From: an uncultured Gammaproteobacteria bacterium
GTDB taxonomy: Bacteria > Patescibacteriota > Microgenomatia > UBA1406 > HO2-37-13b
NCBI GenBank assembly: GCA_964422025.1
Contig: CAYQYZ010000001.1
Span: 13,410-77,409 of the forward strand
DNA: 64,000 bases
Direction of reading: 5' to 3'
Shown: one piece after another, positions 12,988-15,855 of the stretch
Layout: each line of letters opens with the position of its first letter
Position numbering within the stretch: the stretch's first letter is position 1
Position numbers and translations under genes: made by a program
Notes under the pieces: model-generated
What the model saw: only the letters and a program-made list of their open reading frames with translations
Told to the model about the DNA's origin: nothing
Database searches by the model: none

Positions 12988-15855
12988 ATGTTCAATCCAT
13001 TCAAAAGTTTTTTCGACTTTAACAAAAAAGAAATCGATCGACTTGCCAAGCGAGCTGAGGAGATTAATAAACTTGAAGATTCGGTTCGTAGTCTAAAAGA
13101 CTCCGACTTTGCGCTAGAAACTAAAAAGTTGCAAGAACAAGTAAAGTCAGGCAAAAAGACATTAGACGAAATTCTACCGTACTCATTCGCACTTGTCCGC
13201 GAAGCCGCCCGAAGAGTTTTGGGAACGCGTCATTACGATGTTCAGCTTATGGCTGGAATTGCGCTTCATGAAGGAACGGTTGCCGAACAAAAAACCGGAG
13301 AAGGAAAAACATTGTCGGCCACATCTCCACTTTATTTAAACGCACTTACTGGTAAGGGTGTTCATTTAGTTACAGTAAACGATTATTTAGCAAGGCGTGA
13401 TGCCGGTTGGATGGGACAACTATTTAGTTTTCTTGGTCTTTCTGTTTCAGCAATAATCTCTGAACAATCATATATCTATGACCCTACTTTTACTGATTCA
13501 CAAGCAACTGACTGGCGACTAATTCATCTGCGACCTGTTTCACGTAAGGAAGCATATGATGCGGATATTACATACGGTATTAACTCAGAATTTGGATTTG
13601 ACTATTTGCGCGACAACATGGCCAATGAAATGACCGGACTTGTACAACGCGGATTTCACTATGCAATTATCGATGAGGTTGACTCAGTGTTAATCGACGA
13701 AGCTCGCACACCACATATTATTTCTGCAGCGTACGATAAAGATGTTTCAAAATATTACGACTACGCAACGATTGTTTCAAAATTGAAACCCAGCGATTTT
13801 ACGATCGATGAAAAACAAAGAACTGCTCATTTAACCGAAGAAGGAATCGCGACTATTGAAGGAATTCTAAAAGTTGAGAACGTTTACGAAAAAGATTTCG
13901 ATACCGTATTTCATGTTGAAGCTGCGCTAAAAGCTAGAACTCTTTTTACGAAGGACAAAGATTACATTGTAAAAGATGGCGAGGTTATTATTGTCGATGA
14001 ATTTACCGGACGCCTTTTATACGGCCGTCGATTTTCAGAAGGATTGCATCAGGCAATTGAAGCTAAGGAGAGAGTAGATATTAAACAAGAATCGCGAACA
14101 CTTGCAACGGTTTCATTGCAGAACTATTTTAGAATGTATGAAAAACTAGGCGGAATGACCGGTACTGCAGCAACAGAAGCCGAAGAATTTTCAAAGATTT
14201 ATAAACTTAATGTTATTATTTTCCCAACGCATCAAAAAGCAAGTCGTATCGATCATTCCGATTTGATTTATAAAACTGAACTTGGAAAGTTTAGCGCTGT
14301 TGTTGCTGATGTTGCCGCGCAACACAAAACAGGTCGACCAGTTTTAATTGGAACCACTTCTATCCAAAAGAATGAGCTGCTTTCTCAATTACTCAAAAAG
14401 AATGGTGTTCCACATACTCTATTGAATGCTAAAAACCATTTAAAAGAAGCACAAATTATTTCCGCTGCGGGGCAACGAGGAGCAGTAACCGTTGCAACCA
14501 ATATGGCAGGAAGAGGAGTTGATATTGTATTGGGCGGAGAAGCACCAAGCAAATACGAACGCCCTGTTGAAGCGAATGGTCATTCTGAGCATAGCGAAGA
14601 ATCTCAGTCTGACCGTCATCCTGAACTTTCCGCCCAAGGCGGATCAGGATCTTCGTCATCAATGAAACAAGCTAAAGAAAACGAAAAGTACGAAAAGAAA
14701 ATAAATGAATGGAGAAAGAAACATGATGAAGTTCTTTCACTCGGAGGATTATACGTCATTGGTACCGAACGTCATGAATCTCGCCGTATCGATAATCAGC
14801 TTCGAGGACGATCAGGACGACAAGGTGACGCCGGAGAAACACGATTCTTTGTGTCACTCGAAGATGATCTTATGAGAATCTTTGGTGGTGAGCAAGTTGC
14901 AAAATTAATGAATTTTTTTAACATTCCCGAAGATCAACCCCTTGAGCATAAAATGGTTTCTCGAGCTCTTGAGCAATCACAGGTAAAGGTTGAAGGATTT
15001 AATTTCGATATGCGAAAACATTTGGTTGAATATGATGATGTATTAAATAAGCAACGAGAAGTTATTTATAACTTACGAAATCAAATCCTTAGATCAGAAA
15101 ATAAAGAAATTGATGATATTGCTACAAACCTTTTTGACGAAGAAATTCAAACACTTGTAAACATGTACGTGTATCTTGAAGAAGAAGTAATTGAATTTGA
15201 AAAACTTGCAGTAGAATTTTCACAAATAATCGGAACTGACCCAAAGAAATTTCAAGCCGAACTTGAGAAGCTGGATAAACCAGAAATCGCTGCACTGTTA
15301 ACTAAGAAATTACAAACGAGTTATAAAAAGAAAGAAAAAGACCTAGGTGCCGATGTATGGAAACAAGCAGTTCAAATTGTATATTTATCTACAATCGATC
15401 GATATTGGACAGAACACTTAACCGCAATTGATGACCTTCGTGATGGCATTCGTTTCCGCGGATACGCCCAACTTGACCCGCTTGTTGAGTACAAGAATGA
15501 GGCGTACACAATGTTCGAAAAATTACTTTCAGATATCAATTACGATGTATCTCGTCGATTACTTCACATTGAAGTAACGCAAAATATTCCCCAAGCCCAA
15601 AGTATTGATGAAAGCAAAATGCAATTATCATCCGCTTCTGCAGTCGATCCATTCGCTGCACAATCCGATCCTCATGCTGGTCACGACCATTCTCATGACG
15701 GTCACGACCACTCCGGCCATACCCATACACATGTCGAGCAGAGTGTTCCCGCACAAAGCGCAAAAGTCGGCCGCAATGATCCATGTCCATGTGGAAGTGG
15801 ACTGAAATACAAAAAATGCGGCCTCATTAATGCTCCCGAGCACAAAAATGGATAA
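12988..15855 (+). CDS. secA: preprotein translocase ATPase SecA
   Basis: DEAD-like motor motifs ([47 protein letters not shown]) and C-terminal zinc motif [13 protein letters not shown]. Start at MFNPFKSFF (ATG 12988). Carries a repeat-derived in-frame insert and a His-rich tract. Confidence 0.95.
   Translation: [955 protein letters not shown]
14578..14607. repeat. GTCAT-N-CTGA hairpin repeat, copy 1 inside secA
   Basis: GGTCATTCTGAGCATAGCGAAGAATCTCAG. Same length and arms as 42975-43004, with paired C-to-T and G-to-A stem changes. Confidence 0.8.
14614..14655. repeat. GTCAT-N-CTGA hairpin repeat, copy 2 inside secA (longer nested hairpin)
   Basis: CGTCATCCTGAactTTCCGCCcaaGGCGGATCAGGATCTtcg. 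Outer stem ATCCTGA/TCAGGAT, inner stem TCCGCC/GGCGGA. Confidence 0.75.

Follow-up and report, generated by a model that had tools for sequence, protein, structure and literature searches.

The secA gene of a bacterium of the Candidate Phyla Radiation (CPR; Roizmanbacteria) carries two copies of a short hairpin repeat inside its reading frame. The copies lie in a 64-kb stretch of contig CAYQYZ010000001.1 (64,000 nucleotides, all of it referred to here as the window), on the same strand, in the segment that encodes the variable (VAR) loop of SecA. They are palindromes of ~30 nt that resemble repetitive extragenic palindromic (REP) sequences, and secA is an essential gene. We consider it very probable that they are a passenger insertion which the protein tolerates.

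Two hairpin repeats in the VAR loop of SecA

The secA gene spans 12988–15855 on the + strand and encodes 955 residues from the homologue-supported start MFNPF; its homologues are 60–95% identical, and it has the SecA Pfam domains. The homologues mark the organism as a member of Candidatus Roizmanbacteria/Microgenomates (CPR). The VAR loop of nucleotide-binding domain 2 (NBD2) is encoded by 14527–14760 (+; residues 514–591, 78 aa), between helicase motifs V and VI. Copy 1, GGTCATTCTGAGCATAGCGAAGAATCTCAG, occupies 14578–14607 (+; 30 nt, residues 531–540) and consists of a GTC tag, a 21-nt hairpin (ATTCT-GA-GC-ATA-GC-GA-AGAAT) with 7/7 Watson-Crick pairs intact, and a CTCAG tail. After a 6-nt spacer, TCTGAC (14608–14613, +; residues 541–542, SD), copy 2, CGTCATCCTGAACTTTCCGCCCAAGGCGGATCAGGATCT, occupies 14614–14652 (+; 39 nt, residues 543–555). 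Its basal stem, ATCCTGA/TCAGGAT, is topped by a GC-rich apical hairpin, TCCGCC-CAA-GGCGGA (14629–14643, +). The same apical module is found at L003:9955, L006:9952 and L129:10351 and in L014, L038 and L047 (L and P numbers are our labels for the loci and proteins compared). The two copies are direct, not inverted, and the repeat segment measures 75 nt, or 25 codons (residues 531–555). Translation of the open reading frame (ORF) shows that the frame is kept. The sequence and this ORF confirm both copies as an earlier sequence-only reading of this DNA had placed them.

An assembly or binning artefact, in which mis-joining at repeats put repeat sequence into secA, is vanishingly improbable. Assemblers can be misled by short dispersed repeats, and the DNA comes from a metagenome-assembled genome. 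Against this, a second assembly pipeline (the Logan assembly of run SRR12762304, possibly also the source of the window's reads) is 100% identical over 8.9 kb (8,868 bp), the 75-nt insert included. The reading frame is preserved, and five further assemblies, produced by other projects, carry alleles at this codon position that are related to that of the window but not the same. The exact SecA protein (P0242) is on record from an NCBI genome and a Logan assembly. On the strength of the identical second assembly we rejected the artefact, which the sequence-only reading had itself raised.

The copies sit in a part of SecA that varies widely. Among 120 SecA homologues, the segment between the two conserved motifs is 28–79 residues long. 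Close-relative SecA proteins include two with no copy (P0002, P0004), one with a single copy in another frame (P0001) and one with a different stem variant (P0003). The secA DNA of L002 and L006 has no copy and encodes a Lys-rich GDEKEGKKKRE.. instead. In L001 a single copy is read in a different frame (GVILSESEGSQ), and the single copy of L133 bears a GC-rich apical hairpin (GVILSSAAGGSEGS). L003 has ~2.5 copies: a truncated one, a full one of the ATCTC/GAGAT variant and one that has decayed. The frames used by these alleles differ, giving VILS.. or HPEL.. from the repeat. By position, copy 2 of the window is the counterpart of the one copy present in L001 and in L133, and copy 1 is the additional one. 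Related repeat-derived peptides occupy the same loop in other Roizmanbacteria lineages (P0120, with SDPPAGG, P0016 and P0027). A scan of JGI metagenomes for further alleles, using the conserved downstream secA flank, gave 0 matches.

Structural comparison places the insert in the same loop. Thermotoga maritima SecA structures can be aligned on either side of the segment and have no counterpart for the 64 residues in between; their chain residues 542 and 544 flank the gap. In the AlphaFold2 model, residues 528–555 are coil with a predicted local distance difference test (pLDDT) score below 50, and a confident helix follows at 555–584; the repeats encode 531–555. The insert is probably translated as a disordered, acidic, Ser-rich loop of 25 residues, as predicted by this model. 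Because the closest relatives differ exactly at this position and the Thermotoga structures skip the segment, the comparison supports the view that the 25-residue peptide is not conserved and that the segment is not an ancestral conserved loop. The sequence-only reading had proposed an insertion in a variable region. This is borne out by the close-relative alignment, in which presence of the insert ranges from none (L002, L006) to ~2.5 copies (L003) in a lineage-specific manner, and by the variation in sequence, length and frame among the alleles of close relatives. The insert falls exactly in the length-variable segment between motifs V and VI of NBD2, as the VAR subdomain does. VAR, in contrast, is an older helical insertion; its helix (555–584) is kept here, and the repeats add 25 disordered residues before it. 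The VAR loop is thereby marked as a natural insertion-accepting site of SecA.

SecA would survive the insertion because the inserted length is a multiple of three and the element is stop-free in four of six frames; the gene would stay intact and the element would be translated. Frames +0, +2, −0 and −1 are each open in 92–96% of 150 copies, and in-frame survivors are therefore common. Since the peptide and even the frame vary among alleles, we infer from the sequences that both secA copies are neutral passengers. Elsewhere in the window, independent cases count in favor of a tolerated passenger insertion: an insert in a GT2 glycosyltransferase, a C-terminal extension of SerS and a tsaD stop codon supplied by a repeat remnant. 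The sequence-only reading had offered that secA tolerates or exploits the insertion. Tolerance stands, as the loop is dispensable and relatives have from none to ~2.5 copies. Exploitation has no support, as peptide sequence and even frame differ among alleles.

Co-option of the insert by SecA, with the acidic, Ser-rich loop tuning ATPase activity or ADP release or serving as an interaction site, is highly unlikely. It would be consistent with the location of the insert within the VAR region, with the recurrence of repeat-derived peptides in this loop in separate Roizmanbacteria lineages and with the intactness of both secA copies. A regulatory role for VAR is reportedly claimed in the title of a 2012 paper by Das et al., known from reference lists, and VAR is said to act on ATPase activity and ADP release in E. 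coli SecA. However, sequence, length and frame of the peptide differ among close-relative alleles, two close relatives lack any copy, the region is predicted to be disordered, and the same element also occurs in unrelated proteins (GT2 and the SerS tail).

Several observations weigh against a simple passenger insertion of a known type of repeat. The closest sub-clade has no true empty secA allele, as L002 and L006 have the Lys-rich sequence, and the ancestral state therefore has to be inferred. The window and L001 form a mosaic in secA, ~99–100% identical up to ~14360 and ~90% thereafter, so the allele differences may reflect recombination instead of insertion in place. Both copies have perfectly intact stems, and could be either young or maintained. 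By nearest-neighbor energies, the copy-1 hairpin does not exceed shuffled sequence in stability (z = −0.5). Loop length and tail do not match the published CGTC-tagged REP families, to which the repeat is compared below. Finally, the account of spread given below draws on the 64-kb window and on short segments of other genomes.

Outside the repeats, secA shows an apparent recombination breakpoint at ~14360 relative to L001, within an essential gene. An argument from a 99%-identical strain with a different insert was dropped after this breakpoint was found. The C-terminal tail of SecA (~15650–15745) has a His-rich (GHDHS)n stretch ahead of a zinc-binding CPCGSG motif, which AlphaFold2 models with low confidence. 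The (GHDHS)n repeat number varies among relatives, and a 15-nt difference from L001 lies at 15699.

The repeat family and its hairpin

Both secA segments belong to a family dispersed through the window, as the sequence-only reading had held. The exact motif GTCATYCTGA occurs six times, always on the + strand, compared with ~0.2 expected by a uniform-base estimate. A repeat search of the window groups positions 12952, 14579, 42639 and 42976 in one family. We built a covariance model of the family from 55 copies. The best match in the window is copy 1 (14577, 44.1 bits, E ~1e-8), followed by 42974 (35.6 bits), 42637 (34.4 bits) and 12950 (29 bits). Copy 2 scores 9.8 bits because of its 15-nt apical insert. 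Its membership is instead indicated by 15 + 9 exact bases shared with the copy at 42638 (2 matches found versus 0.00 expected) and by its inner TCCGCC..GGCGGA hairpin, which is a recurrent sub-type of the family seen in relatives and in other phyla. The census of the window comprises 4 strong copies, 1 nested, 1 truncated and 1 remnant, all on the + strand. There is also a weak, possibly degenerate copy at 63298–63329 (+; 16.8 bits, E = 0.06), inside the ORF at 63094–63786.

All members follow one plan, in which a 21-nt hairpin stands between a GTC tag and a CTC(AG) tail. The hairpin consists, in order, of an A-T and a T-A pair, three covarying pairs, a tandem G·A/A·G, two further pairs and either a GNA loop of 3 nt or, in its place, a longer apical hairpin rich in GC. 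GTC is invariant among the 55 aligned copies; the base before it is C in 4/6 and G in 2/6 window copies, and mostly T in other phyla. Alignment columns 6–26 (A-U) and 7–25 (U-A) are also invariant, and the 7 Watson-Crick pairs together with the tandem G·A make nine stacked positions. Most copies have the 3-nt loop, which in others is replaced by an apical hairpin of 15–16 nt. Its first base, left free in the search pattern, is G in ~140 of ~149 copies; the middle one varies freely. In the tail, variable bases come after CTC. This lineage has CTCAG, and certain copies (12952, L003:1701) have CCCAA. The GC-GNA-GC core with sheared G·A pairs is presumably the unusually stable d(GCGNAGC) DNA mini-hairpin. 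An alternative stem, CTGAG/CTCAG, was rejected, as the ATCTC/GAGAT variant retains CTCAG and loses CTGAG.

The pairing is confirmed by covariation. When 236 copies were anchored on bases outside the stem, 223 of them had Watson-Crick pairs at all three variable outer positions, compared with a mean of 92 and a maximum of 110 after shuffling. Among copies retrieved with Y and R left open in the search pattern, 198 are matched (TCT/AGA 102, CCT/AGG 96) versus 6 mismatched (TCT/AGG 4, CCT/AGA 2), and the inner pairs covary as well (GC/GC with AC/GT). In a second count, 97.4% of cells are paired versus 86.8% after shuffling, and double-sided changes number 53 versus 13.8; the seed set for this count had been pre-filtered for pairing, which makes the 236-copy test the fairer one. 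G·T wobbles outnumber A·C mismatches (15 versus 4) and the tandem G·A is conserved, indicating that the structure most likely forms on the GTCAT strand.

These counts support selection on base pairing at the nucleic-acid level for the family as a whole. The sequence-only reading had argued for such selection from the paired substitutions ATTCT/AGAAT in copy 1 and ATCCT/AGGAT in the intergenic copy at 42975–43004. The substitutions are as described, and the argument holds for the family and is not established for the secA copies themselves. In contrast to copy 1, copy 2 has a predicted RNA fold (−18.3 kcal/mol, z = −4.65) clearly above shuffled stability.

It is very improbable that the hairpins were kept because they act on secA mRNA, through ribosome pausing, RNase entry or protection, or attenuation. 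A role of this kind would agree with the folding of the 96-nt region (−35.2 kcal/mol, z = −3.7) and with the view that REPs elsewhere act as RNA elements (Di Nocera et al., 2013; PMC3733652). By our own tally of model matches and gene calls, most single copies in the relatives' loci are apparently sense to the adjacent gene, but this apparent bias is confounded with replication-strand bias. Moreover, the GT2 copies run antisense to the gene that contains them, close relatives differ in whether a copy is present, and no T-tract follows either secA copy, so they are not terminator-like. A terminator scan likewise returned nothing at family copies. Rfam scans of the window, the insert and the loci with canonical copies gave no family match at or near the repeats. 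Separately, an inverted dimer of the family in Saccharimonadales (L062 749–834) has a sub-threshold Rfam match to Aggregatibacter sRNA 41 (RF02901; 40.8 bits versus a gathering score of 97). This small RNA family may contain a related REP dimer.

Other coding sites and the spread of copies

In the loci of relatives, at least 10 family copies occur per 23 kb, and most occupy short intergenic spacers. Most copies in the window overlap coding sequence because the intergenic spacers are so short. The GT2 glycosyltransferase gene (42018–42959, −) carries a truncated 5' half of a copy (42618–42637, +), antisense to the gene, followed by a full copy (42638–42667, +; 34.4 bits). Together they encode, antisense, KQVQDDGQLPQNDG. 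In P0122, at 95% protein identity, the protein is uninterrupted and reads EILDDAISS. P0125, P0128 and P0124 have other forms of the insert. Some relatives have a single copy (RSAQNDG), and in the GT2 gene of L129 the loop of an older copy has received a further one, a true nesting. GT2 DNA from two other sequencing runs, 97.5% identical, has the same insert as the window. The intergenic copy (42975–43004, +; 35.6 bits) lies in the spacer that separates the GT2 gene from its divergent neighbor, which starts at 43047. Directly downstream of this copy and upstream of that gene is a perfect 12/12 sigma-70 consensus promoter (TTGACA-16-TATAAT, 43018–43045).

At the serS/secA junction, a copy at 12951–12982 (+; 29 bits) provides the last codons of SerS (..ARHAELVSASQ*). 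The junction is an empty site in L001 (EVISPLQ*). It contains one copy in L133, 1.5 copies in L002 and L006, and a full copy plus two truncated halves in L003. All alleles retain the original Gln (His in L006) and stop codons. The mechanical start of the secA ORF, at 12955, is 11 codons early (MLNLFQHPNNI, 12955–12987) and falls within the junction repeat. The third site is a 10-nt remnant, GTCATCCTGA, at 25073–25082 (+), whose TGA is the stop codon of tsaD; the syntenic site in L003, L133 and L006 has full copies stacked over 80–100 nt in total. For annotation, such elements create false N-terminal extensions (MLNLFQHPNN), supply C-terminal residues and even provide stop codons. The stop codon of the convergent gene begins at the base right after the tsaD remnant. 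At the upstream junction, sua5/tsaE and tsaD overlap by 4 nt in the window (24057–24060) and in L006, and in L003 (21373–21453) and L133 they are separated by an 81-nt spacer that is wholly an inverted repeat dimer.

How copies arrive can be approached from these alleles, since several alleles in close strains record gain, stacking and decay. At three coding sites, truncated 5' halves of 18–21 nt are stacked ahead of a full copy. Empty sites already resemble the ends of the element (GCGTCATCTAAAATCTC in GT2, CTCTTCAATAA in serS). There are also mosaic copies, such as copy 2, in which the basal stem of one sub-type is combined with the apical hairpin of another. We tentatively suggest, at somewhat less than even confidence, homology-assisted copying into or beside resident copies. 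New copies would preferentially arise within or next to existing ones, or where the sequence resembles the ends of the element. The route would be copy-choice template switching or gene conversion on single-stranded DNA, with no dedicated cut-and-paste enzyme. For secA, this would mean that copy 2 was there first and that this lineage gained copy 1 afterwards.

A less likely but serious alternative is a dedicated enzyme acting in trans on single-stranded DNA, either a tyrosine transposase of the HUH type, like the REP-associated tyrosine transposases (RAYTs), or an IS110/Piv-type recombinase. The enzyme would recognize the GTC tag and hairpin, and the secA copies would be true transpositions. 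The conserved unpaired 5' tag followed by a hairpin mirrors the logic of GTAG-tagged REPs and RAYTs (PMC3733652), and inverted dimers of the family resemble REPINs (REP doublets forming hairpins). Convergent inverted dimers ('+−') within 100 nt number 87, compared with 35 for all other arrangements (15, 14 and 6); their arms are ~27 nt and the partners lie 0–100 nt apart. Strand-specific features, namely the tandem G·A and the GNA loop with its preferred first G, would also be consistent with an enzyme, as would the location of all window copies on the strand with positive cumulative GC skew, the L129 copy inserted into the loop of another copy, and the near-identical sequence across phyla, which suggests common recognition machinery. 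However, 18 sampled between-copy intervals from many phyla contain ordinary housekeeping ORFs and no small linked transposase, as judged by eye with no family search. No consistent target-site duplication is seen; empty sites show TCA/GTCA similarity alone. Of the two hallmarks of MITEs, terminal inverted repeats and target-site duplication, the dimers thus show inverted arms, and the direct secA copies do not. End-like empty sites and mosaic copies fit homology-driven copying better.

A broader form of copying without a transposase is unlikely. The family would then be a pan-bacterial element that homes on single-stranded DNA into the loops or ends of resident copies through its d(GCGNAGC)-like core. 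If this were true, the element would be a regular source of length variation in the loops and termini of CPR proteins, including SecA, SerS and TsaD, because CPR genomes have almost no intergenic space.

Known repeat systems and further observations

The family is widespread. In a scan with one genome per species that gave at least 120 matches, those listed come from more than 12 phyla with the core almost unchanged. The phyla include Acidobacteriota, Chloroflexota, Saccharibacteria, Nitrospirota, Omnitrophota, Bacteroidota, Bacillota, Planctomycetota, Verrucomicrobiota, Proteobacteria and Gemmatimonadota, and cultured isolates are among the matches. This near-identity of the core across the phyla of the matches listed is an unexplained conservation. 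A full-text literature search with the element sequence returned unrelated primers only.

The family closely resembles the CGTC/TGTC-tagged REP superfamily in its tag, stem and dimers. These published REPs have stems of 8–9 bp that start with A-T and T-A, loops of 4–5 nt and short tails with the consensus CCA; they occur mainly as inverted dimers and have no dedicated transposase (Di Nocera et al., 2013, BMC Genomics 14:522; PMC3733652). Within genes they form in-frame singles and dimers that encode 20–30 aa, and the superfamily takes in Neisseria dRS3 and Rickettsia RPE-4 and RPE-6 (PMC3733652). Shared with the family described here are an unpaired (C/T/G)GTC end tag, the A-T, T-A stem start, about nine stem positions, a short unpaired tail, inverted dimers (spacers 20–100 nt), occurrence in many phyla, in-frame intragenic units and, as far as the 18 intervals judged by eye show, the lack of a known linked transposase. 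The differences are the 3-nt GNA loop or long apical hairpin in place of 4–5 nt, the tandem G·A/A·G conserved in the stem, and a tail of CTC(AG) or CCCA rather than CCA. To the phyla listed there for CGTC repeats, the hosts found here add CPR/Patescibacteria and several others, such as Acidobacteriota, Chloroflexota, Nitrospirota, Omnitrophota and Bacillota. The exact family consensus was not found in the text or supplementary files of Di Nocera et al. (2013). The phenomenon is not new, as in-frame intragenic singles and dimers of REPs were already described there; new here are the host group and the gene. In-frame colonization of essential genes by REP-type hairpins is thereby extended to the CPR, and the alleles of close strains could show how CGTC-type REPs spread without a known transposase.

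The classical precedent is the in-frame insertion of Rickettsia palindromic elements (RPEs; Ogata et al., 2000, as summarized in PMC10969869). As far as that summary describes them, RPEs are likewise palindromic repeats placed in frame in unrelated, often essential genes and tolerated through surface regions. RPE-1, in contrast, is ~100–150 bp long with a conserved peptide module, whereas the units here are 30–39 nt, are read in several frames and encode no conserved peptide. Instead of Rickettsia, the host here is a CPR bacterium, either free-living or episymbiotic. Like this family, REP/REPIN-RAYT systems consist of short 5'-tagged hairpins, form inverted dimers, lie mostly at gene 3' ends and are polymorphic for presence and absence. 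They differ in having a GTAG tag instead of GTC(AT) and in being usually lineage-specific, compared with near-identity across phyla here; no RAYT-like ORF was seen by eye in the 18 between-copy intervals. Small dispersed repeats of cyanobacteria, described by Elhai et al. in 2008, are reportedly palindromes of ~20–30 nt that nest in one another and occasionally lie in coding sequence. The likeness is by description, as their sequences and hosts are said to differ from those here.

The window has further features of note. A convergent intergenic region at 3763–3936 is conserved among relatives over ~110–170 nt (L003 1732–1877, L006 3916–4113, L133 3917–4187). A long helix (TACGGCGCGAGATATCTGAT ... 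TGAGAATCACGATATCGAGCGGAGTA) closes it, the hairpins inside vary, and eight pairs show compensatory changes across four sequences. The region has no Rfam match and is possibly a small RNA that has escaped annotation. Another dispersed repeat family, also entirely on the + strand, occurs at 2850–2892, 35643–35712 and 40543–40585 and consists of a AACCTNNNAGGTT hairpin followed by GTGCCTA; the member at 35643 has three tandem 27-nt units. Lastly, three 33-nt segments recur at a spacing of 592–593 nt within 26262–27479 (family D3), and they probably reflect a repeated domain in coding sequence.

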